DNA of 31,614 nt from Promethearchaeota archaeon (GCA_013375475.1 JABXKD010000040.1:1-31614); one strand, 5' to 3'; positions 859 to 19,976 are shown, counted from the first letter of the stretch. The notes: generated from the letters alone by a model not told the origin. Program-made: numbers and translations.

Positions 859-951
859 TTAAACGTTTTTTTTATGCTTTATATTGTAGGTTATGAAAGC
901 AATCAAGCCTAGTGTTACTAGTGTTAGTGTGAACATCGAAAAACCAGGAAT
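859..951 (-). other. PGF-CTERM/Loki-CTERM-like C-terminal sorting signal
   Basis: Pro-rich linker PPAPL, then IPGF, about 20 hydrophobic residues and basic tail KHKKNV-stop. Confidence 0.8.
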
Positions 952-3030
952 CAGGGGTGCTGGGGGTTCTATGTATGGATCATACATAATCCGAGCAGGT
1001 AATTGGAACATTTCATCAAAAACATAGTTCAATTGAAAGTCTCTGCTGATAGCGTAGAAATTTTTATCCTGTGAGATCATTATATAGCCGTATTGATAGT
1101 TTGTAAACCAATCAGCGTATTTGCTTAATAGCACCTGATATTCAGCGGGACTTGCAAAATTAAGTCCATCCAACCATTCATCAGCAGTAGAATTATAACT
1201 AAAGCCTAAATTCCACGGTTCACCATCTCCAAGCATCGCACCTACTGGCGGAAGAGTATCGGCCCAAGGCCATAACATGTTAAATGCACCTGCGGTATAG
1301 AAAGGATATGAAGAGCCCCCAAGCCACATCGAATTATAAATTGCTGTGAAGACACGGGGTGAATATTCCCATTCTGCAGATTGATTGGTAGCGCAACCGA
1401 TTTTTTCCATTGCATTATAAACTTCGTTGTTAACATCCTCGTGAGGTACATCCCAAGCGTAGTCAAATACATACAACGGGTTAGAAGCAGCTCGGGCAAC
1501 CCATTCAGCTTCTGTCCAAGTAGAAGATTCTGGAGGTGCTATTCCTCCATCTCTTAATGCTTGTCTTGCTATATCAAGATCATAATATGAGTAAGGAATA
1601 GAGTCATCGTACCATGGAGAACTTGTTCCAACAGGATATCTTACTCGAACCGCACGATTTTTCTTAGTTGCCGAGATATAAGTGTCGTAATCAAAGGCGT
1701 AGGATAAAGCTTTTCTGAACGCCCTTGGAACGCCTTTTCGAACACTCTTATCGCCGTAGTCCATCCAGGATCCAGGGAGTGGGAATAATTCAGCATCAGG
1801 GATAGCCCAATCGTCAATACAGTTTAATGATATTATATTGATGTTTTGATCAAAAGTAGTATCATGCGCTGAAACAAAAGCAGAGGCTACAATATCGTCA
1901 TAATTAAGTGATTCAGTTGCATAGTGGAAACCAAAATCAACTTCTCCTGTAACTAAAGCTGTGTTACGAAGTGCTTCACCACCTCCTACGCCATATGGAA
2001 ACCAAACTAAATTCCAAGTATCAACTACAAAAGTGTCAATAGGCATAAATGGAGCATTCCACCAATCTTCATATTTTACCATTTTTCCTCCTGCTGGGGA
2101 ACCGCCCTCATCGTGGACAACAAACTTATAAGGACCAGTCCCTATCATATGTCCAGGGAAGCCAGTAGTAGGATAAGTTCCAGCTATTACTTGCGCTTCT
2201 GATGGTGTTTGTAGGAATGAAGGATCATTTCCATAACCGATAATAGGCACCTCGAAATAATCCTTATAAGCATCCATAGAAAGCATCATCACTCCCCAAC
2301 CTGACATACCACAAACTACACCGAGAAGACCTGAATTCCAGCTGTTTGATGTGATGTTTATCTTCCCTCCATATTCTAGATCTTCTACAATAGTACAATT
2401 GTTAATTATGGGTACGTATCCGCGCATAGCTTCGTCCTGCATACTTGGTCCACCCCAACTTCCATATTGTGGCATTGTATTATTGAACTTTGTTAGGTTC
2501 CAACTAGGAGTAAAATAATCCTCGAATTCGAGTGCTTCGACATACAAAACATGTTTCCATTTAGATAAGCCGTTTCCAGTCAAATTTCCATCAGCTATAA
2601 ACTTGCGATCAAAATTCCATTTTGCAACTGTTGCATTAAAAGGTGAACCATCATGGAAGGTAACATCATTTCGAAGTGTAAATTCAATTGATTTGATTCC
2701 ACCAGTTTGAAGTATATCTAGCGAATTATTCTCTTCAGGCCAATATTCTATTTCCCAGCTTGATGCAAGATGAGGAATCCAATCCGCTACTTGTCCAGAG
2801 AAATTCACATTAGCAACCCCCAATGTTTCCATTGCATTAAAACTATAATCTTGTACTGGACTTGAACCTCCATTTGAAATCGGATCCCAATCTTTAGCTT
2901 GACCACCAGTACCAGTAGAAAATTCAATAGGAGCAGTTTGGGCAACTACAGTCGGAATCATCGGAATTAAAGGAAAGCCCATAACGCTAAGCATAACCAC
3001 TATAAGAATATATTGGTTAATTTTTTTCAT
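859..3030 (-). CDS. dppA: ABC transporter substrate-binding protein, family 5 (DppA/OppA-like), with N-terminal signal peptide and C-terminal IPGF-TM-basic anchor
   Basis: SBP5 motifs LASSWE, FTLRNDVTFHDGSPFNA..AKWNFDR, IGTGPYKF and RKALSYAFDY. Start moved to ATG 3030 (MKKINQY + hydrophobic stretch) because the extension to 3147 is low-complexity and contains the likely TATA box. Confidence 0.9.
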   Translation of the reverse strand: MKKINQYILIVVMLSVMGFPLIPMIPTVVAQTAPIEFSTGTGGQAKDWDPISNGGSSPVQDYSFNAMETLGVANVNFSGQVADWIPHLASSWEIEYWPEENNSLDILQTGGIKSIEFTLRNDVTFHDGSPFNATVAKWNFDRKFIADGNLTGNGLSKWKHVLYVEALEFEDYFTPSWNLTKFNNTMPQYGSWGGPSMQDEAMRGYVPIINNCTIVEDLEYGGKINITSNSWNSGLLGVVCGMSGWGVMMLSMDAYKDYFEVPIIGYGNDPSFLQTPSEAQVIAGTYPTTGFPGHMIGTGPYKFVVHDEGGSPAGGKMVKYEDWWNAPFMPIDTFVVDTWNLVWFPYGVGGGEALRNTALVTGEVDFGFHYATESLNYDDIVASAFVSAHDTTFDQNINIISLNCIDDWAIPDAELFPLPGSWMDYGDKSVRKGVPRAFRKALSYAFDYDTYISATKKNRAVRVRYPVGTSSPWYDDSIPYSYYDLDIARQALRDGGIAPPESSTWTEAEWVARAASNPLYVFDYAWDVPHEDVNNEVYNAMEKIGCATNQSAEWEYSPRVFTAIYNSMWLGGSSYPFYTAGAFNMLWPWADTLPPVGAMLGDGEPWNLGFSYNSTADEWLDGLNFASPAEYQVLLSKYADWFTNYQYGYIMISQDKNFYAISRDFQLNYVFDEMFQLPARIMYDPYIEPPAPLIPGFSMFTLTLVTLGLIAFITYNIKHKKNV

Positions 3031-3108
3031 TTTTTTTCTCTTTTTATTAGTTTTATAAAATTCAAATTTTTTTATTAGATTTTTTCTAAGTATATTGAAT
3101 TTTTCATC

Positions 3109-3120
3109 TATATAAACTTT
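3109..3120 (-). promoter_or_regulatory. BRE/TATA promoter for the SBP gene
   Basis: Minus strand AAAG-TTTATATA about 80 nt upstream of ATG 3030; matches the archaeal TTTAWATA consensus. Confidence 0.55.
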
Positions 3121-3167
3121 AGATCTTGTAGATAGTGAATTACTCACGTAAAATTTAAAATTACTTC

Positions 3168-3181
3168 CAAAACTATTAAAA
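3168..3181 (+). promoter_or_regulatory. Probable BRE/TATA promoter for the divergent permease/ATPase operon
   Basis: CAAAAC-TATTAAAA about 55 nt upstream of ATG 3237. Confidence 0.4.
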
Positions 3182-3236
3182 AGTAAAGTAAACTCTTTTT
3201 GTTAACATTTTCATTAGAAAACACTTAAATTGAAGA

Positions 3237-3773
3237 ATGGGAAAGATTAAAGAGAAGTCAGCCCAAGGTAGGAATCATTCTACCAAAGAAATTAACAAGG
3301 GGCATGTGTCCATTAATTGGGGCCGCCAAGGAGGCGTAATTCTTTCATATCTCGTTGTTTTGATAGGTTTTTATGGAATAATTGCGAATATCATAATGGT
3401 AGATGCTTATGGAAATTGGATTTCTTATTTAGATCCTAGAATAGACGGAAGGATTCTTATCTGGCCTTATACAACTTACTTACAAACTTATTTTTTACCC
3501 ATTCTTTTATTATTTCTTATTAGTTTTATACTGACATATAAAGAAGATATCCCTTTGTATGGGATTAAAGCTTCACTCTGGTTAATACCTAGCATCATAA
3601 TTGAGGGTTTTGTTTTCTATTGGATGATGTTTGGTCTTTCACTCGAACCATTTGTCTTGCAATTTGGTACGGGAGAAGGGTATTTAAATATTTTAATTTT
3701 GTTTTTAATTACGATTACTGGTTCCTTTAGTGGTATGAAAATAAAACAACTGCTAAGTAGAAGAAAAAAGTAG
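3237..3773 (+). CDS. Hypothetical membrane protein (about 4 TM), first gene of the ABC operon
   Basis: 178-aa ORF with four hydrophobic segments and basic termini; no recognisable family; 52 nt upstream of dppB. Confidence 0.8.
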   Translation: MGKIKEKSAQGRNHSTKEINKGHVSINWGRQGGVILSYLVVLIGFYGIIANIIMVDAYGNWISYLDPRIDGRILIWPYTTYLQTYFLPILLLFLISFILTYKEDIPLYGIKASLWLIPSIIIEGFVFYWMMFGLSLEPFVLQFGTGEGYLNILILFLITITGSFSGMKIKQLLSRRKK

Positions 3774-3825
3774 TTTTAATAGGATTAATTAGTTTAAGAA
3801 AAACAACTATAGAAAGGATGGAAAT

Positions 3826-5121
3826 ATGGCTCGAAAACAAACAAATATGATAAAATATATCATAAAACGAATTTTACTTATGTTTCCTATGCTTTTAGCT
3901 GTTTTAATCGTAACATTTTTACTCTCTCAAATGATGATGGCAGACCCTAGTATGAGTTTATTAAATATTGGAATGGATGAAGGTGCACTTCAAAGAGAGT
4001 TGGATAGATTGGGATTTCGAGACCCAATACATGTAAAACTTTGGAAGTATTTGGTAAATTTCTTTTCAGGCGATTGGGGAGTTTCTTATGTTGCAATGCC
4101 AGGAACTCCTGTATTGGATATGATTGGTAAAATTTGGCCCAAAACAATCGAATTAGTTTTACTCCCAATAATAATTGCTCCTATTATTGCTATCAAACTT
4201 GGAGTTACATCCGCAAAGCATAAAAATAAAAATAGGGATATTATTATACGATTTGTCGCGATTCTTGGAGCAGGTTTCCCAGTATTTTTTATAGCAAAAT
4301 TATTGCAAATGGTATTTTTCAACCTTAGAGTTATTACTTATGATGATATAAATCTACCACTCATGTACTCAAATTCGCCATTGTACTTGGGTTATACATC
4401 AGCAGAGATTGTTCCACCACCCCCATTATTCACGCTAAGTTATTTAATCGTGTTGATATTTTTGATTATTGGTATTGTTCTAGTTTATAAAGGAGCTGTT
4501 TCTTTAAAAAGGAAATTTGTGTCCTTTAGAGAGAAAGAAGATAAATCTAAGCGGACTAAATATATAATTTTGGGAGTATCTTTTATCGCAATCTGCTCAA
4601 TTCTACTTATATTCTTAACTTCTGTTTTATACTCATTTTCATACGGTACAGGATTTAGAATAATTGATGCCATATTATTTAACAATCAACATCATTTATG
4701 GGATACACTAATTCATCTATTTATCCCCGTTATATGCATGGTATTTGTGTCTTTGGCTCCAATTACTAGACAAACGCGTTCAAGTATGTTAGACGTTATA
4801 GATCAAGATTATATCCGAACTGCTCGTGCTAAAGGTGTTGAAGAAAATACAGTCTTGAACAAACACGCTTTACGAAATTCGTTATTACCTACTAGTACTC
4901 TTATTATAGGAAACACAACTGCTGCTTTACTTGGATCGCTTTTTATAGAAATTAGTTTTAACTACACTGGTCTGGGATATTATATGGTTCGTTCTGTATT
5001 CATGGGTGACTATTTTGTGATACAAGGGATACTAGTATTTTCAACTATTATAATACTTATTGGTACACTCCTTACAGATGTGATGTATACAATTATAGAT
5101 CCAAGAGTTACTTATAATTAA
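3826..5121 (+). CDS. dppB: ABC transporter permease DppB/OppB-like, with an extra 2-TM insertion
   Basis: KYIIKRILL N-terminus, GDWGVS, TIEL, P.FF, TGF.IIDAIL, HL.IP, EAA loop RSSMLDVIDQDYIRTARAKGV, HALRNS and C-terminal DPRV. SD-like AGGATGG upstream. Confidence 0.95.
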   Translation: MARKQTNMIKYIIKRILLMFPMLLAVLIVTFLLSQMMMADPSMSLLNIGMDEGALQRELDRLGFRDPIHVKLWKYLVNFFSGDWGVSYVAMPGTPVLDMIGKIWPKTIELVLLPIIIAPIIAIKLGVTSAKHKNKNRDIIIRFVAILGAGFPVFFIAKLLQMVFFNLRVITYDDINLPLMYSNSPLYLGYTSAEIVPPPPLFTLSYLIVLIFLIIGIVLVYKGAVSLKRKFVSFREKEDKSKRTKYIILGVSFIAICSILLIFLTSVLYSFSYGTGFRIIDAILFNNQHHLWDTLIHLFIPVICMVFVSLAPITRQTRSSMLDVIDQDYIRTARAKGVEENTVLNKHALRNSLLPTSTLIIGNTTAALLGSLFIEISFNYTGLGYYMVRSVFMGDYFVIQGILVFSTIIILIGTLLTDVMYTIIDPRVTYN

Positions 5122-5143
5122 ACAACAAAAAAATGGGAATGTT

Positions 5144-6136
5144 ATGATACAAGTAAAAGAGATTGAAATAAAAGATATAGAAGTTAAGCAAAATCGTAAA
5201 GCAAAGATTAAAAAATATTTAAAATTCCTACTAATTCCTGGATGGCGAGACCCCGACATTACAGCTCAAGAATATGAAATTGAAAAAATTGAATCAAAAA
5301 GGAGGATATTCCGACGATTTCTAACTCCTCTAACAATAATAGGAATCATAATGATTTTATTTTGTGTCGTGCTTTCAGTTTTTGCGCCATGGTTAACAAC
5401 AATTCCGTTACAGGAAGTTACGTTACCCTATTATCCTTCGGGCGTCCTTCCTTTCGAACCACCTTCTCCAGATCATCCATTAGGGACAACTTTTTATGGA
5501 TACGATATTCTCGCGAGAATAATTTGGGGTGCTAGGACGACCCTCTCAATGGCATTAGTTCCCGTTATAATTGCTCAAATGGGAGGTCTTGTCTTTGGAA
5601 CAATTTCTGCCTATTTTGGAGGTTGGGTTGATAGCTTAATTATGCGCGTGGTGGATTTAATGTTTGTTTTTCCAATGATAATTCTTGTGATAGTCATTGC
5701 CCCTATGTTAGGCACTGATTTATTGACTACACTTACATTATATGGGTTGTTATTTATACCATTTTATACCAGATTTATGAGATCAACGGTACTCCAAGTA
5801 AAGCAAATGGTGTACGTAAAAGCGGCTAAAACTGGCGGAGCAAAAAAATTTAAAATAATGTTTAGGCACATCGTTCCAAATGCGCTCTCCCCAATGATAA
5901 TTCGCTTTTTTGGGGGGATGGCACGAACAATACTAGGAATAGCTAGTCTAGCGTGGCTTGGTTTAGTTGACCAAACTGTCGCCAACTGGGGAACAGATAT
6001 AAACTGGGCTCAAGAACAATTTACTGCGTTTATGGCCGCTGTTTGGCCAGGATTTTTCATAGGCATTGCCACAATAGGATTTATGCTATTAGGAGATGGA
6101 ATGAGAGATGCTTTAGATCCACGCTTACATATATAA
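5144..6136 (+). CDS. dppC: ABC transporter permease DppC/OppC-like
   Basis: PPSPDHPLGT..GYDILARIIWGAR, YFGGWVD..IMR.VD, EAA loop YVKAAKTGGA, RHIVPNALSP and GDGMRDALDPR. Confidence 0.95.
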   Translation: MIQVKEIEIKDIEVKQNRKAKIKKYLKFLLIPGWRDPDITAQEYEIEKIESKRRIFRRFLTPLTIIGIIMILFCVVLSVFAPWLTTIPLQEVTLPYYPSGVLPFEPPSPDHPLGTTFYGYDILARIIWGARTTLSMALVPVIIAQMGGLVFGTISAYFGGWVDSLIMRVVDLMFVFPMIILVIVIAPMLGTDLLTTLTLYGLLFIPFYTRFMRSTVLQVKQMVYVKAAKTGGAKKFKIMFRHIVPNALSPMIIRFFGGMARTILGIASLAWLGLVDQTVANWGTDINWAQEQFTAFMAAVWPGFFIGIATIGFMLLGDGMRDALDPRLHI

Positions 6137-6201
6137 ATACGTGTAAAAAGAAAATTAGGAGATGATTTATTATATTACAATTTTACCAACCAAATATCGT
6201 A

Positions 6202-8145
6202 ATGGCTATTATTGAGGTAATAATATCGAGTATACTCTTATTTATAATAGTTAATAGCTTGAATAACTGGCTTTCGGAAGAACATCAAATCCCGAAAAAA
6301 GTTAATATGAAAAGTAATCTTATAAGTGTTCTCATAGTTTTTGGTATATCACTGGGTATACGCTTGCCGTTTGAAAATTTAGGATATTATTTCGAATATT
6401 TTGTAATTTTTAATAACCAACCATTACATTTTGCTATAATGGCAACAATTTTCTTTCCTTTTCAACACATATTCGGGAGAAAAAGTTATAATTCTATAAA
6501 AGAGATTAAATCTTACCAAAAAGAAACAGTAGAAAATCACCATGAAATTGTAGATAGCCCTATTTCTAAGAAAAAATTATTTCAAAAGCTGTTAATAATA
6601 TTTGTAATTTTAACATGGGTAGTAGCTATAATATATACATCATTTGGACTACTTGGGATTGAAATACAAAATTTCGACTTAAGGGAGGCAGATATATTAC
6701 ATTTAGGGTTAATTTGGGCTATAATAATGATATTTGTCCTTGTAGTTCTTACTTCAATGTTAAACAGAACCTTGTCAATTGAAGTTAGACTTCCAAAGGA
6801 GGTACTTAGAAATAGTCAAATTATCGGAAGTATTGTTTCATTAGGAGTATGGGCTGTTCAGATCGTTATTTTTGAAATGTATTTATCCAGATTACTTGGG
6901 ATATGGCCATTCGAGCAAGATATTCGCGTCTTAATTGGAGTGGTTAGCAGTGTTTATATAGTTGTTTTTTATATTGGCACAAAGAAGGTATTTTTACCCA
7001 AAGCACATGAAAGAAGTAAATTGAAGATTCAAAATGCATTAGATTTACAGGAAACAGGTCAATCTAACTATCAGGAAGGAAAGAATGTAATTTTGGACGT
7101 GAAAAATCTCACTACCTATTTTTATACGGAAGAAGGAATTGTTCGTGCTGTAGAGGGCGTATCATTTAAAATCCTTGAAGGAGAAGTAGTAGGTCTTGTT
7201 GGTGAAACTGGTTGTGGGAAATCTGTTACTGCTTTATCAATTCTTCAATTAGTTCGTCCTCCGGGAAAAATAATAAAAGGTGAGGTGTTCTTCAAAGGCA
7301 AAGACTTAATGCAAGAATCCGAAAAAATACTTCAATATCGAGGAAAAGATATTACTATGATTTTTCAAGACCCTCTTAATTCCATTAATCCCGTTTTTAA
7401 AGTAGGAGATCAGATTTCTGAAGTATATCTCCTACACATGGAAAAAGAATTATTACTAGAAACCATAAATCACCCCGAAAAAAGTATTTATAGTACAGCT
7501 AAAGATTGGAGCGAAAATCTTTTAAGAGAATTAAATATTCCTGCTCCAGAGCAAATAGTAGATAGATATCCTCATGAATTAAGCGGTGGAATGCGACAGA
7601 GAATTCAGATTGCTATGGGATTGGCGTGCAGTCCTAAACTCCTAATAGCAGATGAACCCACAACCGCATTAGATGTCACCGTTCAAAACCAAATTCTAAA
7701 ATTAATGAAAGATCTTAAAAAAAAATACAATACTTCGATTCTATTTATCACTCACGATTTAGGTATTATTTCAAAGATGTGTGACCGAGTTGCTGTTATG
7801 TATAGCGGATTTATCGTTGAATATGGCAAGATTCAAAAATTATTTTCGAAGCCGTATCATCCCTATACAAAGGGACTTATAAGTTCCGTGCCGGTAGTAG
7901 GCAAAAAAAAGCACCGACTTGAAATTATATCAGGACTAGTACCTAATTTAATCTATCCCCCAACAGGATGTAGATTTCACCCTCGATGTAAATATTGCTT
8001 TGAACCTTGCGATTCAGAGCAACCGAAAAGCATAGAAGTCGAACCAAATTATTATGTAGCATGTTATCTTTACGATCTAGCTTATCACGATAAAGCAGAG
8101 ATTTCTATTAAAAAAGTTCAAGAAGAGGATAAGGCACCGAATTAG
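6202..8145 (+). CDS. dppD: DppD/OppD-like ABC ATPase fused to an N-terminal membrane domain of about 7 TM (true start may be ATT at 6169)
   Basis: NBD from about nt 7087: Walker A GETGCGKS, Q-loop IFQDP, YPHELSGGMRQR, Walker B LLIADEPT, FITHD, and C-terminal HPYT...GCRFHPRC Cys domain. The first 260 aa are strongly hydrophobic. Confidence 0.93.
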   Translation: MAIIEVIISSILLFIIVNSLNNWLSEEHQIPKKVNMKSNLISVLIVFGISLGIRLPFENLGYYFEYFVIFNNQPLHFAIMATIFFPFQHIFGRKSYNSIKEIKSYQKETVENHHEIVDSPISKKKLFQKLLIIFVILTWVVAIIYTSFGLLGIEIQNFDLREADILHLGLIWAIIMIFVLVVLTSMLNRTLSIEVRLPKEVLRNSQIIGSIVSLGVWAVQIVIFEMYLSRLLGIWPFEQDIRVLIGVVSSVYIVVFYIGTKKVFLPKAHERSKLKIQNALDLQETGQSNYQEGKNVILDVKNLTTYFYTEEGIVRAVEGVSFKILEGEVVGLVGETGCGKSVTALSILQLVRPPGKIIKGEVFFKGKDLMQESEKILQYRGKDITMIFQDPLNSINPVFKVGDQISEVYLLHMEKELLLETINHPEKSIYSTAKDWSENLLRELNIPAPEQIVDRYPHELSGGMRQRIQIAMGLACSPKLLIADEPTTALDVTVQNQILKLMKDLKKKYNTSILFITHDLGIISKMCDRVAVMYSGFIVEYGKIQKLFSKPYHPYTKGLISSVPVVGKKKHRLEIISGLVPNLIYPPTGCRFHPRCKYCFEPCDSEQPKSIEVEPNYYVACYLYDLAYHDKAEISIKKVQEEDKAPN

Positions 8146-8202
8146 CATAATTAACAACTTATATAATGTTATAAAAAAACTGAAACCTAAAAGGGAAAAA
8201 TA

Positions 8203-9915
8203 ATGATTTTGCAAATTATCTTACCAACGTTAGAGCAAATTATTACAGAAACGATAGTTTTGATAATAGTTTTATTGATTGGATTTTCTTTTATGGGAAA
8301 ATATGCAAAGAAAAGAAATTGGGAAAATTCCTATATAGTTGCTATAGCTATTAACTTTATATGGTTTATAACTAATTTGTTTCTGGGGATATCTACTTAT
8401 CAGTTATTTAGTAACGGATTTATAATTGATTCAATTTTAGTCGTTATTAACATCTTCGTAGGAAGTATAATAGCTATAAAATTCTTGAAGACCAGCTTGA
8501 AAGAAGCACTCACACTAACAATTATTACTCAAATAGTATTGTTTGCTGTTACTTATATTTTGAATGAAATTCCTAATATAATCAGTATATTTGAAATCGA
8601 ACATCCTTTGTATGAGAGTTCAAAACTCACCTTTATCTTTTCTCTCATCATTATTGTAGCGATTATGAGTTTTATAATGAATTGGGGAGATAAAATTCAA
8701 TTAATTGAATCGAAAAACATAATACTATTATTGAGCATTTTACCGGGAATCTATTCAATAGTCTTCGCATTTACTACACTTAGGGAGGAATTTTACCTAA
8801 ATCTCGGTGAGAGCTTAATCTTAGCGTTTATAATTTCAATAATATTATCTTTAGTTTTAAAAAAAATTGCATATAGAAGTATTAAGTATGAGGAATTGAG
8901 AGAATTAGCTGTTCTCGAAAAGGGCAAACACCTATTAACTATAAAAGATCTTAAAGTGTACTATCCTCTACTCGCAGGAATGCTTAAAAGACAAGTAGGA
9001 GCTGTACAAGCAGTGAATGGCGTCTCGTTCGAGATAAAGACTGGTGAAACATTCGGTTTAGTAGGAGAAAGTGGGTGTGGTAAAACTACAATTGCAAATG
9101 CAATTTTAGGATTAGTAGAAAAGACAGATGGCGATATTTTATTTCATAACGAACCGATCCCGGATGAATTTACAGGATATTTAAGACAAAAAATACAAAT
9201 CGTGTTTCAAGACCCAGATGCGTCGCTAAACCCTCGATTTAAAATTGTAGAAACTATCGCAGAACCTTTAAAAAATATTTTGGGTATTACTGATAAGAAA
9301 CAAATAAGAAGCCATGTTCTGAAATTATTACAACAGGTGTCGTTAAAGCGAGAACATATGGATAGATATCCACACGAGTTCTCTGGTGGACAAAAACAGA
9401 GAATTATCATTGCTCGAGCATTAGCTTGTAATCCAGAGTTAATAATTTTAGATGAACCTACATCTGCTCTCGATGTATCTGTACAAGCCCAAATCCTCAA
9501 TCTTCTTAAAGATTTACAAGAAACGTACGGTTATGGATTTTTATTCATCACACATAATCTTGCCGTTGTAAATCACATTGCTGATCGTATCGGCGTTATG
9601 TATTTAGGGAAAATCGTAGAACTTGGTTCAACTGAGCAGATTTTTTTAAATCCAACTCATCCTTACACTCAAGCCCTTTTAGCATCACGATCTGAAATTG
9701 ATCCCGAAAATCAGGAAATTAGTTTTGTTATATCAGGAGAGGTTCCAAGCCCGATTAACCCTCCCTCGGGTTGTACATTTAACCCACGATGTGTTTCTGA
9801 TGCTCGCACTCTTGAATGTGAAGTTGATTTACCGCATAAAATTAAAATAGAAAAGGATCACTACATTTGGTGTGTTAACCCCCCTGTAGGCTTTACACCT
9901 CCTAATGAGGATTAA
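8203..9915 (+). CDS. dppF: DppF/OppF-like ABC ATPase fused to an N-terminal membrane domain of about 7 TM
   Basis: NBD from about nt 8932: AVNGVSF, Walker A GESGCGKT, VFQDP, YPHEFSGGQKQR, Walker B LIILDEPT, FITHN and HPYT...PSGCTFNPRC. The first 220 aa are strongly hydrophobic. Confidence 0.93.
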   Translation: MILQIILPTLEQIITETIVLIIVLLIGFSFMGKYAKKRNWENSYIVAIAINFIWFITNLFLGISTYQLFSNGFIIDSILVVINIFVGSIIAIKFLKTSLKEALTLTIITQIVLFAVTYILNEIPNIISIFEIEHPLYESSKLTFIFSLIIIVAIMSFIMNWGDKIQLIESKNIILLLSILPGIYSIVFAFTTLREEFYLNLGESLILAFIISIILSLVLKKIAYRSIKYEELRELAVLEKGKHLLTIKDLKVYYPLLAGMLKRQVGAVQAVNGVSFEIKTGETFGLVGESGCGKTTIANAILGLVEKTDGDILFHNEPIPDEFTGYLRQKIQIVFQDPDASLNPRFKIVETIAEPLKNILGITDKKQIRSHVLKLLQQVSLKREHMDRYPHEFSGGQKQRIIIARALACNPELIILDEPTSALDVSVQAQILNLLKDLQETYGYGFLFITHNLAVVNHIADRIGVMYLGKIVELGSTEQIFLNPTHPYTQALLASRSEIDPENQEISFVISGEVPSPINPPSGCTFNPRCVSDARTLECEVDLPHKIKIEKDHYIWCVNPPVGFTPPNED

Positions 9916-11825: not shown

Positions 11826-12869
11826 ATGGGTAGATTAATATCTCTTAATCGAAGAGAAATAGCTTCAAAACGCTTCAGATTTATTTTCTATGAAATACTT
11901 CCGATATTCGCAATAATTTTTATCCTTTTAGTTTTAGAATGGTATTTATTACCGCTTATAGTAGATCGATCCTCACCGTTATTCAGTATTTATTTTTACA
12001 TTATTAGAGCTTTCGCAATATTTTTAGGAATAATGCTTTTTTTATTTGTATCTCATAAACTTAAGAAAAAAAATTCACGACCTATAAAAAAAGATTTAAC
12101 GCCTCATATTGGTTTTCTAAAACTATATAAAACGACGAAGAAAAATTACACTTATCAACTCCTTTATAGTTTCTTATTGTTCTTCTTAATACTAATCCCT
12201 CTTGAATTTGTAATTGCAATTGGCTTACCCGAGACCATGCCCTTACGTGTTTTTTCAGTAGTCTTTGAATATGATGACAATTTTATATTATTTTTATTTT
12301 ACTCAATTATTATTCAATTAAGTATATCATTTTCAGAAGAAACAGTTTTCAGAGGCTTAATAGTAAAACAAGGGAGTGAACATTTTAACAAGTTATCAGC
12401 TGTAATGATATCAACTCTATACTTTACCTTTGCAGAAGTTTTTTTAAATCCCGCATATTTTTCAGTTAGTAACTATATTGTAGTCATCTGGTTTGTTAAA
12501 TCGTTTTTAATAGGTCTTGTATTATCTTTAACGATAATAAGAAGAAAGTGGTTATTACCGCTGATACTCGCAAAAACACTTTATTCTATTCTATTGAGCG
12601 TGGTTGTTCGGGATTATTTGAGAGGTAGCACTTTGATAATGCCCTTAATTATTATCTACAGCGATCTATTAATTATTAGTTTAATTATCCTTATATTACA
12701 ATTTTCTAGAGTTAAGGAGAGTTTACAAATAGGAGTAAAAATGATAAAGACTTACCTTAAAGATGATATTAAGTCAAAAGAATCTAAAGGTGATAAACTA
12801 TTTCGCATTCTTTTTGATATCCTTTCAGCTTTCTTAGTATTTCTTCTTGGGTTTTTAATTACCGTTTAG
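11826..12869 (+). CDS. CPBP (Abi/CAAX prenyl protease 2) family multipass membrane protein with degenerate catalytic motifs
   Basis: Motif 1 EETVFRG is intact. The later motifs align in spacing and hydrophobicity but lack His (YFTFAE; LLPLILAKTLYS). Confidence 0.75.
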   Translation: MGRLISLNRREIASKRFRFIFYEILPIFAIIFILLVLEWYLLPLIVDRSSPLFSIYFYIIRAFAIFLGIMLFLFVSHKLKKKNSRPIKKDLTPHIGFLKLYKTTKKNYTYQLLYSFLLFFLILIPLEFVIAIGLPETMPLRVFSVVFEYDDNFILFLFYSIIIQLSISFSEETVFRGLIVKQGSEHFNKLSAVMISTLYFTFAEVFLNPAYFSVSNYIVVIWFVKSFLIGLVLSLTIIRRKWLLPLILAKTLYSILLSVVVRDYLRGSTLIMPLIIIYSDLLIISLIILILQFSRVKESLQIGVKMIKTYLKDDIKSKESKGDKLFRILFDILSAFLVFLLGFLITV

Positions 12870-12878
12870 AAAATTAGC

Positions 12879-13889
12879 GTGATATATTTGTTCAAAAAAA
12901 CTCAATACAAATTTAAAACCTATAAATCGGACGCAGCTCCGTTTTTCTTTTATATTGAAATTTTTCCCTTTGATACATCTTTATACCTAAACCCGTATAC
13001 ATCATATCTTATAAAAACAATCGAAAGAAATCCAATTGTTCCAATTCCTATGCGTGTCGATCGCGTATTTAACGGAGAGAGCTCGGTAATCATTCGTCCA
13101 AGGGAAGTTGTTTCTTTTCAAATTTCAGAGGAACAACTCGCTGTTATTAATCCTTTTCATTTTCTTCGTTGTGGAATTAAAAATTTAATTTACTTCTCTG
13201 AAATTCGGTCTTCAGAACAATTATTTAAACATTTGTCAAGCAAAAAATTGATATCCTGGTGGGAGGCAACGAGATTCCTTTATGGCAATCTTTATAGGCT
13301 CGAAGAAGATTTCTCTGCGTTTTTAAAAGCATACTTACATACAATGGTTAAGAATTATGTTGAGGGCGAGGATCTAGTGAGCGCTGCTATCCAATACTGT
13401 GGAATTATAGAGGAAGTTTGTAAAAAAAGGATGCAACAGAATAGAATCTTAACTGAAATTGATCAAGAGCAATCTACTGTGAAAATGTATAAAAAAAAAG
13501 ACTTTACCACATATAAAAAACTTAAGAAAGCAACTGAAATTCAGTATCATCCTGAACTAATTGATATTGAAGTAATTAATTATTCCAGTAATAATTGGCC
13601 TAAAGATACAACTACTATGAATATACTAGAGAGTAGCGTAAAAAAGTACATCCCTTTATTGTTTTACGACGATTTGCAAGAATGTATGCTCCTGAATTTG
13701 AAATTCTTAGAAGAAAATGAAAAAAAAATCTTAAATCCCTCAACCTTGATTAAAAAAAATATTATAACCATAATAGACTCTAAAAATTATGACGACGATT
13801 TCAAGAATAAATATAAATGGTGGAATGCTTTTGATAGCATTAAACCAGATTTAGTCTTAAAGGAGATGCTCCAATCTTTTATAAAATGA
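12879..13889 (+). CDS. Hypothetical soluble protein
   Basis: 336-aa ORF with GTG start, 9 nt after the CPBP-like gene; protein-like composition; no family recognised. Confidence 0.8.
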   Translation: MIYLFKKTQYKFKTYKSDAAPFFFYIEIFPFDTSLYLNPYTSYLIKTIERNPIVPIPMRVDRVFNGESSVIIRPREVVSFQISEEQLAVINPFHFLRCGIKNLIYFSEIRSSEQLFKHLSSKKLISWWEATRFLYGNLYRLEEDFSAFLKAYLHTMVKNYVEGEDLVSAAIQYCGIIEEVCKKRMQQNRILTEIDQEQSTVKMYKKKDFTTYKKLKKATEIQYHPELIDIEVINYSSNNWPKDTTTMNILESSVKKYIPLLFYDDLQECMLLNLKFLEENEKKILNPSTLIKKNIITIIDSKNYDDDFKNKYKWWNAFDSIKPDLVLKEMLQSFIK

Positions 13890-15262: not shown

Positions 15263-16198
15263 GTGAAAAAAATCGCTAATAAATTAATGTCTATGAAAGA
15301 AGCTATAAGAAAGTATGTAAATGATGAGGAGATGGTCTTTTTAAGTGGTTTTGGTAATGGAGTCGCATACTCTGCCGCTCACGAAATCATTAGGCAGAAG
15401 AAGAGGAAACTCAAAATTTGTAAATGTAGTGGAGGTATTTTATTTGATCAATTGATAGGTGCCGGGGTTACAAATCAAATAATAACATCTCATTGCTGGA
15501 ACGGACTCGGCCCCCAACCCGCTTGGAACTATAAACGCGCTATGGAAGAACAAATTCCAGAAAGAGTAATTTACAACGAACAATCGCTATTTATGATTAA
15601 TATGTCGTTCTTTGCAGGTTATATGGGCATCCCTTTTGTACCTATTAGGTCACTTGGAGGGACTAGCATTATAGAACACCCAAAAGAAGTGGGAATAAAG
15701 GCCGCTAAAGTTGAATGTCCATTTACTGGACAAAAAATTAGCGTCGTACCTGCGATAAATCCAGATGTAGGAATAGTTCGAGTACAAAGATCAGATCCTG
15801 AAGGAAATGCTCAAATGTGGGGGTTTATTGGAGATACTAAATATGGAATCAATGCTTGTAAAAAGATAATTGTGGCTGCAGAAGAGATTGTAGATAAAAA
15901 TGTTATCATGGAATCCCCAGAACGCACTATAGTAACCTCACATAAGGTCGATGCTGTTGTACACGAGCCATGGGGGGGACATCCTGGGAGTATGCAAGGG
16001 TTTTATTACCCCGATTTAGAATATACCTTCAATTACGCGAAAGAAACAAAAACAATTGAAGACTGGGAGAATTGGCTGGAAAAGTGGGTTACGGGAGTAA
16101 ATGATAGAGAAGAATATTTAAAAGTGTTAGGAGAAAAAAGAATAATAAAGTTAAAAGCAAAAAGCATAATACAAGGAGCTGTTGATTATGGATTCTGA
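15263..16198 (+). CDS. gctA: Family I CoA-transferase subunit A (glutaconate CoA-transferase-like)
   Basis: AAHEIIRQ, DQLIGAG, AGYMGIPFVP.RSLGGT, CPFTG, VPAINPDV...VQRSDPEGN and VVHEPWGGHP. Confidence 0.85.
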   Translation: MKKIANKLMSMKEAIRKYVNDEEMVFLSGFGNGVAYSAAHEIIRQKKRKLKICKCSGGILFDQLIGAGVTNQIITSHCWNGLGPQPAWNYKRAMEEQIPERVIYNEQSLFMINMSFFAGYMGIPFVPIRSLGGTSIIEHPKEVGIKAAKVECPFTGQKISVVPAINPDVGIVRVQRSDPEGNAQMWGFIGDTKYGINACKKIIVAAEEIVDKNVIMESPERTIVTSHKVDAVVHEPWGGHPGSMQGFYYPDLEYTFNYAKETKTIEDWENWLEKWVTGVNDREEYLKVLGEKRIIKLKAKSIIQGAVDYGF

Positions 16199-17042
16199 AG
16201 AAGAAAAAAATTATTGTACTGAATACACAGGCTTTGAGATGATGTTAATATCAGCGAGTAGGCAAATTAAAAAAAATGATATTATCTTTAACGCTTTTCA
16301 TTGGCCATTTCTCGTGGTTCATATAGCAAGATTACTGCACTTTCCTGATCTATACAATTTAATAGAAATAGGTATAACTCAAGACAAACTCATTGAGCCT
16401 ACCAAAATGCCATTTTCTATTAGTGATCCAATTTTGGTTCCTAACTCATTATTCATAGGTGATTCTATTGACACTTTGGCCGTACTCCAACGAGGTGAAA
16501 TAACTTTAGCGTTTCTAAGTAGTTCTATTATTGATAAGTATGGAAATTGCAATACTACTGTAATTGGACCTTACGAGAAACCAATTTATCGTTTACCAGG
16601 CGGAGGGGGCGCTACCGAAATTGCAGGATTATCAAAACGATTAGTCTGGCTTTTAGACGAGCATACTAAACGAAGGTTCCAAAATAAATTAGAATTTATA
16701 ACTGATCCAGGATATTTAGTGGGATATGATAGTAGAGTAAAAGCAGGATATCCTCCAGATACAGGTCCGGAATTAATTATTACACCGCTTTGCATTATGC
16801 GATTTGATCTCGAGACTAAAGAAGCGTATTTGGATGCGTTACACCCAAATATAACGATAGAACAGGTGAAAGAAAACACAGCATGGGACTTAAAAGTGGC
16901 GGACGATATAAAGCAAATTGAACCCCCAACAATCAGGGAAATCGAAGCTTGTAGAAAAACCATGAAAGACGCAATTGAGCAATATTACATATTAAAGCCA
17001 GAATGGACAACTTATTTGGATAAATCATCTTTAAAGCTTTAA
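16188..17042 (+). CDS. gctB: Family I CoA-transferase subunit B (glutaconate CoA-transferase-like)
   Basis: Catalytic Glu in LIEIG, IDKYGNCNTTVIG.Y..P..RLPGGGGA and FITDPG. ATG 16188 lies 9 nt after AGGAG and overlaps the end of subunit A. Confidence 0.85.
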   Translation: MDSEEEKNYCTEYTGFEMMLISASRQIKKNDIIFNAFHWPFLVVHIARLLHFPDLYNLIEIGITQDKLIEPTKMPFSISDPILVPNSLFIGDSIDTLAVLQRGEITLAFLSSSIIDKYGNCNTTVIGPYEKPIYRLPGGGGATEIAGLSKRLVWLLDEHTKRRFQNKLEFITDPGYLVGYDSRVKAGYPPDTGPELIITPLCIMRFDLETKEAYLDALHPNITIEQVKENTAWDLKVADDIKQIEPPTIREIEACRKTMKDAIEQYYILKPEWTTYLDKSSLKL

Positions 17043-17162
17043 TGATAATTTGATCCAAAATTAAAAAAACTATTTTAATAAGAATATTACTTTTACTTAG
17101 TTAAATTTGATAAATTAGAAAAAGAAACTAAAAAGTTAAGAAAAATAGAATGGTATTGAATC

Positions 17163-18380
17163 ATGTCGGGACACATAAATTTTGAAGATCTGGAATTAAA
17201 ATTCGGGTATTCTTGCATGCCGGATAGGTTGCATTATTATTCGAAAGAAGAAAACGATTTTAGAATGGAAGTTCGAAGATGGTGCGAAACACATGTTGCA
17301 CCATATGCAGAACAAATAGATAGAAATCGAGACAAGAATTTAGCGGTAAAAATTTTAAAAGAAATGCCTTATCTCGATATGCTTATCCCCGAAGAAGCTG
17401 GAGGACAAGGGAAAGGAATTCTTTATCGCACGATTTTAGGCGAAGAATTAACTGCCTTTAGCTACGCTTTAGCGGGTATTTTTGGAGCCTCTTCATGCTT
17501 ATTTGCTGGACCTATAATTGAATTTGGTACATCTGAACAGAAAAAGGAATATTTATCTGGGATTGGAGATGGAACAAAAATCGGAGCGATTGCTATTACA
17601 GAGCCAACGGGAGGTTCCGATGCCATTGGTGGGATGAGGTTAAAAGCAGTTCGAGAGGGGGACTACTATATCTTAAACGGTGAAAAATGCTTTATTACAA
17701 ATGGAAGTGTAGCAGATTACTTGTGCATGTATACTATTACTAATGATCAAGTGAAACAGCACAAAGGGATGACGGCATTTATCTTTGAGACAGATACTCC
17801 CGGTTTTGAAGTGATTAAAGATTTTAAGCATATGGGTAGGAGAGGTATGCCTAATTCGCATTTAAGGTTTACCAATTGTAAAGTCCCGGCTAAAAATATG
17901 CTTCATAGGGAAAATGAAGGTCTAGAAGTATTACTTTTTGGGTTAGATGGTGAACGTACTTTTACAGCCTCTCAATATGTTGGATTAGCAAGAAGTGCGT
18001 TCGAAGTAGCTTATCGCTACGCTCATAAACGAGAACAATTTGGAAAATCAATTTACAATTTTGAGGCAAATAGCTTTAAAATTGCTGAAATGTATATGGA
18101 TATAGAAATAAACAGAATCGCTATGGTACAAATTGCGAGAATGCTTGATGAAGGTCACTACCTAAGACCTACAGTTGCAGCATTGAAAGCTAGAATAGCG
18201 GACGCCACCGTACGAATCACGCAAGATGCAGTTCAAATAGTTGGAGGATTGGGATATTCAGAAGAATATCCATTAGAAAGATATTACAGGGATGCAAAAA
18301 TTGGACAAATATCAGCAGGAACATCAGAAATCATGAGATATCTCATTACAAGAGAAATGATTCGAATGTGGGGTAAATAA
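17163..18380 (+). CDS. Acyl-CoA dehydrogenase (isovaleryl-CoA dehydrogenase-type catalytic Glu placement)
   Basis: AITEPTGGSD, LNGEKCFITNG, GLDGER, REQFGK, QIVGGLGY..EYP.ERYYRDAK and ISAGTSE. Confidence 0.93.
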   Translation: MSGHINFEDLELKFGYSCMPDRLHYYSKEENDFRMEVRRWCETHVAPYAEQIDRNRDKNLAVKILKEMPYLDMLIPEEAGGQGKGILYRTILGEELTAFSYALAGIFGASSCLFAGPIIEFGTSEQKKEYLSGIGDGTKIGAIAITEPTGGSDAIGGMRLKAVREGDYYILNGEKCFITNGSVADYLCMYTITNDQVKQHKGMTAFIFETDTPGFEVIKDFKHMGRRGMPNSHLRFTNCKVPAKNMLHRENEGLEVLLFGLDGERTFTASQYVGLARSAFEVAYRYAHKREQFGKSIYNFEANSFKIAEMYMDIEINRIAMVQIARMLDEGHYLRPTVAALKARIADATVRITQDAVQIVGGLGYSEEYPLERYYRDAKIGQISAGTSEIMRYLITREMIRMWGK

Positions 18381-18392
18381 AGGTGAAGATAC

Positions 18393-19184
18393 ATGGAAAC
18401 TAAAATAAAATTAGAAATTGAAGACAAGGTTGCCAAAATTGTTCTCAATGATGGAGAAAATTACAACCCTTTAAATCAAGAAATGGCTAAGCAATTGCTT
18501 GATGTTCTAGAACAACTCCGGAACAATGAAAATGTAAGATGCTTGATGATTACGGGATCTGGTAAAGCTTTTTCTGCAGGAGGAGATATAAAAGCTTTTA
18601 AAGAAAGTATTGAAATAGGGAAACCGGGGGAGCTTATGGACAACCTTCTAAAAAACCTATATAAGATCGCACTTATATTACGCCAATATCCAAAACCCGT
18701 AGTAGCGGCTGTAAATGGATGGGCTGTAGGTGCAGGAATGAATCTTGCGCTCTCTTGCGATTTAATCATAGCATCCAATAAAGCAAAATTTAGACAATCG
18801 TTTAGCAAACTAGCGTTAATTCCCGGTTTTGCAGGAACTATACTGCTTAGCCGTCAGTTAACATGGCAACAAGCAACTGAGATGGCGTTTTTTGGTGATA
18901 CATATACAGCAGAAGATATGTTCAAACTAGGTTTTGTAAATGAAGTTGTTGATCCAGAGAGATTACTAGAACGAGCCAATGAGATGGCATCTAAACTAGC
19001 TAGTGGCCCAACGCTAACATATGCGCGTACGAAAAAACTATTTTTTGATGCTTTAAGCGGATCATTGGTAGATCATCTTGAAAACGAGCGACAGATGCAG
19101 ATTAAATCTGCAGAAACACAAGACTTTAAAATTGGTGTGTTTGCTATTAACGATAAAAAAGAACCAGAGTTTATTGGAAAGTGA
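18393..19184 (+). CDS. Enoyl-CoA hydratase/isomerase (crotonase) family protein, PaaG-like branch
   Basis: GKAFSAGGD, PKPVVAAVNG.AVGAG..LALSCD and LGFVNEVV; SD AGGTGA upstream. Confidence 0.9.
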   Translation: METKIKLEIEDKVAKIVLNDGENYNPLNQEMAKQLLDVLEQLRNNENVRCLMITGSGKAFSAGGDIKAFKESIEIGKPGELMDNLLKNLYKIALILRQYPKPVVAAVNGWAVGAGMNLALSCDLIIASNKAKFRQSFSKLALIPGFAGTILLSRQLTWQQATEMAFFGDTYTAEDMFKLGFVNEVVDPERLLERANEMASKLASGPTLTYARTKKLFFDALSGSLVDHLENERQMQIKSAETQDFKIGVFAINDKKEPEFIGK

Positions 19185-19212
19185 GTTGAAATTAAAGAAA
19201 TAACAACTCAAT

Positions 19213-19875
19213 ATGATGGAACCAGTTAACAGCCTTACAAAGGAACTTATAGAATATTGTGACAAAATCGGTATAGACTTTGTGGGATTTTCTGATACGA
19301 CTAATTTCGATAGTTTTAATAAAAAACATAGACCTGATTCTTTTCTTAGCAATTCTAAAACTGTTATTGTAATTGGGTTTCATTTATATGATATTAGCTT
19401 AGATGCTTGGAATAGAGACGAAGATAAAGGAAAAAGTTATCATTTTGCTGATTTAATATTACTAAATCAATGCCATCGAATAAAGAATTTTTTAGCCAAA
19501 AAAGGCTTTAAATCAAAAATTATAACTTATGAGCCAGGTCTTTTTTTAAAAGATGCTGCTGCGCTAGCTGGAATTGGTCCTATTGGAAAACATAATCTCC
19601 TTATCACAAAAACTTATGGATCTCAAGTAAGGTTAAGGTCATTGGTAACGGATGCAGAACTATCTTTTGGTACCCCTATTCAGGAGAGTGACTATTGCAT
19701 AAATTGTAACATTTGTGTTGAATCTTGCCCTGCGGGGGCTTTAGAAGGTGGAAAGTATAATAAAAATTTGTGCCAGAATTATTGTTTGAAGAATTTAAGG
19801 AACCTATCAGAAAATACCGTGATTTGGTGTAATGTGTGCATTGAATCTTGTCCAATAGGAAGAAAAAATAAATAA
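19213..19875 (+). CDS. Epoxyqueuosine reductase (QueG)/reductive dehalogenase-like 2x[4Fe-4S] protein
   Basis: KDAAALAGIGPIGKHNLLIT..YGSQVRL..LVTD corrinoid-fold motif, CINCNICVESCPAGAL and C...CNVCIESCP Fe-S motifs. Confidence 0.8.
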   Translation: MMEPVNSLTKELIEYCDKIGIDFVGFSDTTNFDSFNKKHRPDSFLSNSKTVIVIGFHLYDISLDAWNRDEDKGKSYHFADLILLNQCHRIKNFLAKKGFKSKIITYEPGLFLKDAAALAGIGPIGKHNLLITKTYGSQVRLRSLVTDAELSFGTPIQESDYCINCNICVESCPAGALEGGKYNKNLCQNYCLKNLRNLSENTVIWCNVCIESCPIGRKNK

Positions 19876-19976
19876 AATTTTACGAGAAATTATAGTAAGG
19901 TTTACAAATATTTGAACTATTTTTAAAAACTATGTGTAATAGAACTAATTTAATATAATTAGAAAAAATTAGAAAA

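Follow-up and report, generated by a model that had tools for sequence, protein, structure and literature searches.

Importers of the Dpp/Opp/Nik type take up peptides, opines, nickel or, in archaea, sugars, and in type I ATP-binding cassette (ABC) importers the ATPase subunits are, as a textbook feature, soluble. The canonical DppABCDF and OppABCDF systems combine a family 5 substrate-binding protein (SBP), two BPD_transp_1 permeases with EAA loops and two oligo_HPY ATPases with Cys-rich C-terminal motifs, their genes following the order B-C-D-F. Here we describe a locus sharing these traits, encoded in a 31,614-nucleotide stretch of DNA (hereafter the window) from a Promethearchaeota archaeon (GCA_013375475.1 JABXKD010000040.1:1-31614), but differing from the canonical Dpp/Opp/Nik systems by predicted polytopic N-terminal domains of ~290 and ~240 amino acids (aa) on its two ATPases, a leading 4-helix protein, a hairpin within DppB and a large (762 aa), C-terminally anchored SBP. 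An earlier reading of the bare sequence, which we call the original prediction, knew of no described transporter with this architecture. The literature that we searched contained none, nor any account of membrane-fused Dpp/Opp ATPases, an absence that is unproven given that subscription journals and supplements lay largely outside the search.

A Dpp/Opp-type importer with extended ATPases

The locus comprises six open reading frames (ORFs) between positions 859 and 9915 of the window, all of them where the original prediction had placed them. The SBP gene (859–3147, minus strand, read from the first GTG; Pfam SBP_bac_5, E 6.4e-24) is divergent from a series of plus-strand genes separated by only 22–65 bases. 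These encode, in order, a 178-aa membrane protein with four predicted helices (3237–3773; the "orf178" family), a DppB-type permease of 431 aa (3826–5121; BPD_transp_1 in two stretches, E 9.5e-33, and BPD_transp_1_N), a DppC-type permease of 330 aa (5144–6136; BPD_transp_1, E 2.9e-30), a DppD of 647 aa and a DppF of 570 aa. DppD starts with a predicted 7-helix membrane domain (residues 1–293; 6202–7080), followed by the ATPase domain and the oligopeptide-type C-terminal region (7081–8145; ABC_tran at residues 318–488, oligo_HPY at 539–603). DppF has the same organization, with a predicted 7-helix membrane domain (residues 1–239; 8203–8919) preceding the ATPase domain and C-terminal region (8920–9915; ABC_tran at 272–421, oligo_HPY at 472–530).

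Pfam and NCBIfam assigned all five parts of the SBP, DppB, DppC, DppD and DppF set, so that the complete importer originally proposed stands. The NCBIfam models for B-type and C-type Opp/Nik/Dpp permeases matched DppB and DppC with E-values down to 1e-59, under their equivalog cut-offs, and those for OppD/DppD and DppF/OppF matched the ATPases at E 1e-98 to 1e-107, the alignments starting only at residue ~295 of DppD and ~238 of DppF. The Walker A, signature, Walker B and H-loop motifs are legible in both ATPases, as are EAA-type loops in both permeases. By these family assignments and motifs, the locus encodes a genuine and complete binding-protein-dependent ABC importer of the Dpp/Opp type, from an Asgard archaeon (Lokiarchaeia/Promethearchaeota), in which the 12-helix DppB/DppC core and the two ATPase domains look canonical and catalytically intact. 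The family 5 SBP, the two BPD_transp_1 permeases and the two ABC_tran plus oligo_HPY ATPases that characterize Dpp/Opp/Nik systems are all present; the trait that is missing is the solubility of the ATPase subunits, each of which has 7 predicted helices ahead of its ATPase domain, as the original prediction had seen. Cys clusters also occur in both ATPase C-terminal regions (window 7990–8080 and 9740–9860), the region where some Dpp/Opp ATPases carry an iron-sulfur cluster.

We characterized the additional helices by Kyte-Doolittle scans and, for the ATPase extensions, by AlphaFold2 models computed on alignments. In DppD, residues 1–265 contain 6 clear hydrophobic segments and the model of residues 1–294 has 7 helices (pLDDT 76.5), the last of which (241–293) continues as a long linker towards the ATPase domain. 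DppF showed 7 hydrophobic segments in residues 1–227 and 7 helices in the model of residues 1–251 (pLDDT 77.4, pTM 0.67). The 178-aa protein has 4 hydrophobic segments, and DppB has 2 additional ones (195–229 and 243–274). These belong to an insertion of ~76–86 aa (residues ~190–275; 4393–4650, plus strand; delimited by alignment and hydropathy) composed of two hydrophobic helices and a Lys/Arg-rich connecting loop, which the alignment places within an outer loop, flanked by two conserved motifs. The additional predicted helices sum to 7+7+4+2 = 20, in line with the ~20 helices over four components counted originally, and both hydropathy and AlphaFold2 predict the ATPase extensions as membrane helices.

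The distribution of charged residues fits an N-out, C-in orientation of both ATPase extensions, since by our own count Lys and Arg are concentrated in those loops that an internal ATPase domain would place in the cytoplasm (16 in DppD and 9 in DppF, against 4 and 2 in the outer loops). Sequence conservation of the DppD extension begins at residue ~5 and includes the polar residues D164, Q220, E225 and Q239-D240-I241-R242; some extension columns are invariant among paralogs that share only 25–43% identity. The most conserved motif of the DppF extension lies in a predicted cytoplasmic loop adjoining the ATPase domain, and the motifs best kept in the 178-aa protein fall within its N-terminal stretch, predicted to be cytoplasmic, and within the loop joining helices 2 and 3. 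The alignment of this small protein has a mean column identity of 61%, and its family comprises 935 clusters, unnamed or "hypothetical" among the matches listed.

Neither the two ATPase extensions nor the 178-aa protein belongs to any Pfam or NCBIfam family; in Pfam, at E-values up to 5, we detected only sub-threshold matches to generic membrane families, and neither BPD_transp_1 nor ABC_membrane. Foldseek searches against the PDB retrieved nothing at E 0.001 or better for the models of the DppD extension (best E 0.48) or the DppF extension (best E 0.51). When the DppD extension was compared with 48,161 chains in VIA-align, the highest Z was 8.8, with generic helical bundles throughout, and for helical models a Z under ~13 may reflect just a common arrangement. 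In the ESM Atlas, the 178-aa protein falls in its own unnamed cluster, a Bathyarchaeota cluster at 0.86 being a lead only; the DppD extension gave no usable match there. As far as these searches go, the two ATPase extensions and the 178-aa protein represent three protein families without known relatives or folds. Neither BLASTP nor hhalign detected kinship among the three, and hhalign detected none with DppB or DppC. We also discarded the idea that the extensions are ordinary BPD_transp_1 permease domains, with which they share no Pfam match and, in hhalign comparisons with the DppB and DppC alignments, a probability of at most 0.6%.

The SBP has two hydrophobic segments in the Kyte-Doolittle scan, at residues 43–69 (signal or anchor) and 731–756. 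Its C-terminus (window 859–950) consists of an IPGF motif, a membrane helix and a basic tail, and most SBPs of related loci end likewise, with IPGF or IPGY ahead of a helix and a stretch of Arg/Lys. We take this arrangement to resemble the archaeal PGF-CTERM sorting signal, in which a PGF motif precedes a membrane helix and a basic tail and which goes together with an archaeosortase A in the genome. No PGF-CTERM model was among the NCBIfam matches of the SBP, and the archaeosortase model TIGR04125 found only a sub-threshold match in the genome (C3:3611-3976; 33.8 bits against a cut-off of 75). The ATPase extensions might possibly serve as the membrane partner of this C-terminal anchor.

Coding status, distribution and modularity

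The genome containing the window (G000) is a 3.92 Mb assembly in 288 contigs. It encodes four operons of this kind, on contigs C223 (the window), C22, C177 and C111, which share 36–42% identity in their DppD extensions and 31–38% in their DppF extensions, as well as one ordinary Dpp operon (C122) whose ATPases, of 430 and 375 aa, lack extensions. A scan of species-representative genomes yielded 29 further loci, all from genomes titled as Asgard metagenome assemblies, except for one titled "uncultured archaeon". In these 33 loci, the extensions lie within unbroken frames in DNA of ~30% GC. DppD measures 604–675 aa, except for the 5'-truncated copy of L043 (573 aa), and DppF 425–754 aa, with an extension of at least 111 aa in 31 of the 31 loci where DppF is present.

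In a comparison with the close ortholog in locus L027, the DppD extension had a dN/dS ratio of 0.21 and the DppF extension one of 0.45; the ratio was 0.32 in the DppB hairpin and ~0.18 in the 178-aa protein. Values of 0.06–0.11 were obtained for the core, including the rest of DppB, the added parts evolving at 2–7 times the rate of the core by this measure. Furthermore, DNA contigs from four other sequencing runs span both extension/ATPase junctions without gaps: X3 (6426–7182), X4 (6936–7337) and X7 (6871–7370) for DppD and X2 (8048–9081) for DppF, X2 and X3 coming from the study that produced the genome and X4 and X7 from two other studies. The sole indel reported in them is a loss of 12 bases in frame at 8129 (X7), in the C-terminal tail of DppD. 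On these grounds, the extensions are best described as real coding sequence and not an artefact.

The gene call recorded for the DppD of the window nevertheless starts at an internal Met and is only 422 aa long (P0012), as is likewise the case for a relative (P0013), so automatic annotation can hide the extension. In addition, by eye, no Shine-Dalgarno-like motif was clear before the long DppD start of the window, and such motifs were visible in relatives ahead of many long DppF starts. An artefact, be it mis-assembly, a frameshift error or a true start that lies further downstream, is nonetheless a very remote explanation, as the same fusions recur in many assemblies, other public gene calls of DppD reach 620–647 aa (P0001–P0006), conservation starts at residue ~5, the dN/dS of the extension is low, independent contigs cross the junctions, no stop codon separates extension and ATPase domain, so that a ribosome starting upstream must produce the fusion, and a frame of ~290 codons would stay open by chance at ~30% GC with odds near 1e-10 by our own estimate. 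Public annotation either gives the extended ATPases the plain label "ABC transporter ATP-binding protein" or cuts the extension off.

To survey the distribution beyond these loci, we compared a profile of the DppD extension with 1.84 billion representative sequences and found 66 at E 0.001 or better: 12 complete fusions to the ATPase, 8 cut within the ATPase domain and 46 without ATPase part. Among the latter, 37 break off within the membrane domain; of the 9 others, 8 end at most 39 residues beyond it and P0021 runs on for 120; most of the 46 look like contig-end fragments. ABC_tran and oligo_HPY were both present in 9 of 10 long representatives, and every complete homologue of the DppD extension was fused to a Dpp-type ATPase. 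Among these complete relatives, the prospect that the extensions would turn out to be separate genes was not borne out.

We also examined a sample of 400 Asgard genomes, in which all counts are lower bounds. The DppD extension occurs in 42 of them: 39 of the 134 genomes in the family of the window, the single f3 genome, 1 of the 22 f16 genomes and G000 itself, with no other family represented. The DppF extension, whole or in part, occurs in 77, and the 178-aa family in 99, including 7 of 14 genomes of the sister family f2. One f2 genome (G032), closed in a single contig, holds a diverged operon (C1:2482040-2488119; L060:6040-12119) with a 179-aa relative of the orf178 protein, DppB, DppC, a 658-aa DppD whose hydrophobic extension of ~250 aa matches the profile with an E of only 5.9e-7, and a 453-aa DppF with a short, three-helix extension. 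Because of this diverged version, the architecture extends past the family of the window at low similarity. As far as sampled, the layout is restricted to Lokiarchaeia-type Asgard archaea.

The original prediction had treated the four additions as one accessory package. Our genome survey does not support this, since they have different distributions and only the two ATPase extensions are constant throughout the family. Even the DppF extension varies: it is long in 18 loci and short (~120 aa) in 13, the short version corresponding to the ATPase-proximal part of the long one (hhalign probability 99.5%). Three helices next to the ATPase domain are kept in all relatives and the four distal ones are optional; the number of helices is 3, 7 or higher. 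Free proteins of ~140 aa that correspond to the distal four helices exist as well. Two 140-aa free homologues are encoded in G000 itself (C255:9067-9489, plus strand, and C211:1182-1604, minus strand; HMM E 1.9e-18 and 4.9e-6), the C255 copy being surrounded by several small hydrophobic ORFs. Doubling of the DppD extension is seen in some proteins. A 980-aa DppD in locus L061 (2079–5021, minus strand) combines the full DppD module, a partial second copy of it and the distal DppF module ahead of the ATPase domain. Many other open frames of 976–1103 aa in the Asgard scans are DppD forms with mosaic membrane cassettes.

Of the 29 loci covering the stretch before DppB, 18 encode the 178-aa protein, which also accompanies the ordinary C122 operon of G000. 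The hairpin occurs in only 3 of 29 DppB proteins (those of the window, L027 and L045), whose lengths in ascending order are 425, 431 and 431 aa versus 347–368 aa for 25 others. In the C111 paralog, a 502-aa DppB (L058:8334-9842) has an N-terminal hydrophobic extension of ~150 aa in place of the hairpin. This paralog also has a TetR-family gene before DppB and, beyond the SBP gene, a 241-aa orf178 relative that looks partly duplicated (L058:4026-4751). In the 26 complete loci, the small protein accompanies a long DppF extension in 9 and a short one in 7; 8 have the long DppF extension alone and 2 have neither. From this distribution, the additions are separable modules and not one co-inherited package.

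Neighbourhoods and candidate roles of the membrane modules

The genes flanking the importer in the window encode a carboxylesterase, an AMP-dependent ligase, an Rce1-like protease and a GDSL lipase and, further away, CoA transferases, an acyl-CoA dehydrogenase and an enoyl-CoA hydratase. After the AMP ligase, positions 11826–13889 hold the Rce1-like CAAX protease together with an unassigned 336-aa ORF, a pair also present in L027 and L036. The region 15263–21428, with CoA-transferase subunits, acyl-CoA dehydrogenase, enoyl-CoA hydratase, ferredoxin-like and HpaB-family proteins, looks like an acyl-CoA fermentation or beta-oxidation cluster. The paralogs of G000 are adjacent to short-chain dehydrogenases, thiolases, a TetR regulator and another AMP ligase, and the neighbours of the window copy and its paralogs suggest a connection with acyl-CoA metabolism.

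The foreign loci have a different context. The esterase/ligase neighbourhood is common only to the close ortholog L027, and the commonest flanking family is a PFL-like glycyl-radical enzyme, which accounts for 21 of the 87 flanking ORFs taken from 26 of the 29 foreign loci, followed by Fe-S domains (10 each), sulfatase (4), enoyl-CoA hydratase (4) and GH32 (3). A single orthologous group of this enzyme (~810 aa, 69–94% identity), sometimes in two copies, directly follows DppF in 15 of the 29 foreign loci (L028–L031, L033, L034, L037, L039, L040, L042, L045, L047, L048, L050 and L054; e.g., L029:11811-14237), and a radical-SAM activase-like gene is near it in several. The enzyme scores highest with choline TMA-lyase and glycerol dehydratase, its best solved relatives (445–467 bits), and reaches only 216–238 bits with the alkyl-/benzyl-succinate synthases MasD and TutD. 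We found no ortholog of it in G000, where the best match has 38% identity. The substrate probably differs among paralogs, and the close link of many members with this uncharacterised enzyme offers a handle on substrate and physiology.

What, then, might the additional helices do? We favour, with evenly divided confidence, the reading that they are peripheral accessory domains on a canonical importer core, comparable to the TMD0 of TAP, TAPL and ABCC transporters, because the modules change more quickly than the core, are variable in number and belong to subunits with intact catalytic parts. The extensions would keep the ATPases permanently anchored in the membrane next to the permease core, and the modules would offer docking surfaces for each other, for the 178-aa protein or for the membrane-anchored SBP, and would not constitute a second transport path. 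A complex prediction of DppB, DppC (residues 50–330) and DppD (residues 1–285) returned "weak support", with a median of 0.45 (runs of 0.53, 0.44 and 0.45), runs agreeing in at least 75% of contacts, a partner pLDDT of at least 64 and a score of 0.00 for the best of 3 controls. Of 80 solved complexes, 58 attained the mark used, against 2 of 110 mismatched pairs, a calibration that is rough here, with alignments of our own. The accessory membrane module of the original prediction survives in this form, as the favoured reading with a weakly supporting complex prediction, though not as one unit made of the four additions.

Several points weigh against peripheral accessory domains. At scores of 0.60 or less, the mark was attained by only 7 of the 80 solved complexes and by both passing mismatches, and such a weak pass is, in the words of the tool, "more often wrong than right" unless the interaction was likely beforehand. 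Family searches detected no homology of the extensions with TMD0 and fold searches no match above noise. In known cases, TMD0 is joined to the transmembrane domain and not to the ATPase. The conserved polar residues of the DppD extension, which our topology reasoning puts near the outer face, would also fit a sensor or ligand site, and the neighbourhoods rich in acyl-CoA and lipid genes keep alive the idea of a hydrophobic substrate for the window copy and its paralogs.

This last idea, that the extra helices are a lateral module for handling hydrophobic or lipid-like substrates, had been advanced as one possibility in the original prediction, where the adjacent esterase and acyl-CoA ligase were taken to suggest a lipid-like substrate. 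It could draw on the lipid- and acyl-related enzymes flanking the window copy and its paralogs, described above, and on the presence of LptF among the structural matches, although its Z of 8.0 over 113 residues does not rise above the noise stated for helical models. However, as a general explanation it is not supported by the comparison of loci: the esterase/ligase set is shared only with L027, 15 of the 29 foreign loci place the importer beside the glycyl-radical enzyme, and this enzyme is closer to choline lyase and glycerol dehydratase than to alkyl- or benzyl-succinate synthases. Since the acyl/lipid neighbourhood is not general, the extra helices do not appear to be tied to lipid-like cargo; moreover, the module make-up does not track the type of neighbourhood and the DppB/DppC core is complete by itself. 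We consider the lateral module unlikely.

An equally doubtful alternative is that the fused 7-helix domains are sensors of an extracellular or membrane signal, or of SBP docking, which would gate ATP hydrolysis through the long helix. The invariant polar residues grouped in the inferred outer half of DppD helices 5–7, the helix 241–293 that runs unbroken from the membrane to the ATPase domain, and the location of the top conserved DppF motif beside the ATPase would all agree with such a function. Against it, the extensions resemble no known sensor family or fold, those of DppD and DppF are unrelated to each other, and a DppF extension that can be as small as 3 helices would be odd for shared sensing.

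The modules could also result from near-neutral accretion, by which small membrane-protein genes became fused to their neighbours and were kept only because the products still have to fold and insert, with no specific role. Selection on the extensions is indeed relaxed relative to the core, the cassettes have often been gained, lost, duplicated and shuffled, and the distal DppF module still occurs free-standing (e.g., at C255:9067-9489). The dN/dS of the extensions well under 1, the invariant columns retained despite the low identity of the paralogs, the extension of both ATPases in all loci with DppF and the maintenance of four paralogs in one genome make this quite improbable. We regard as similarly improbable that the ATPase-fused domains join with the 4-helix protein in a further working unit in the membrane, powered by the one ATPase pair, which would act as a receptor for the membrane anchor of the SBP or as a lateral entry or exit route. 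If true, this would be a two-membrane-module ABC machine, so far only in Lokiarchaeia, built of cassettes that move from one subunit to another and are found as small free proteins too.

Comparison with other membrane additions to ABC systems

Accessory membrane helices around lipid-handling ABC cores are known from MlaD with MlaFEB and LptC with LptB2FG, where each is one helix carried by a separate subunit, in ABC systems of other types. These systems share with the locus described here the presence of extra helices that surround the transport core or wedge into it; nevertheless, we found no homology between them and the additions, the LptF match being no better than noise. The ABC half-transporters with a type IV exporter fold are similar in having membrane helices followed by an ATPase domain on one polypeptide. 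In contrast with them, the proteins studied here have no ABC_membrane match, their ATPases are of the importer Dpp/Opp type and a full DppB/DppC pair is encoded alongside; TAP, TM287/288 and MsbA appeared in the Foldseek search of the DppF extension only with E-values above 1 and TM-scores of at most 0.25.

The closest parallel to peripheral accessory domains is TMD0, an extra N-terminal bundle of 4–5 helices outside the transport core that is described as a hub for interaction and targeting (PMC3437018, PMC6199259, 10.1101/2021.01.29.428621), the N-terminal extensions of TAP and TAPL being presented as autonomous interaction and targeting hubs (PMC3437018, PMC6199259). The TMD0 of TAP1/TAP2, TAPL (ABCB9) and ABCC proteins is, like the predicted extensions of DppD and DppF, an N-terminal membrane bundle additional to the core. 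It differs in belonging to exporters, in preceding the core transmembrane domain and in having 4–5 helices instead of the 7 predicted here. A whole family of importers appears to depart from the soluble-ATPase rule on both of its ATPases and, if the extensions are docking or regulatory hubs, they would represent the first importer counterpart of TMD0 and would show how ABC systems acquire accessory membrane domains in the archaea most closely related to eukaryotes.

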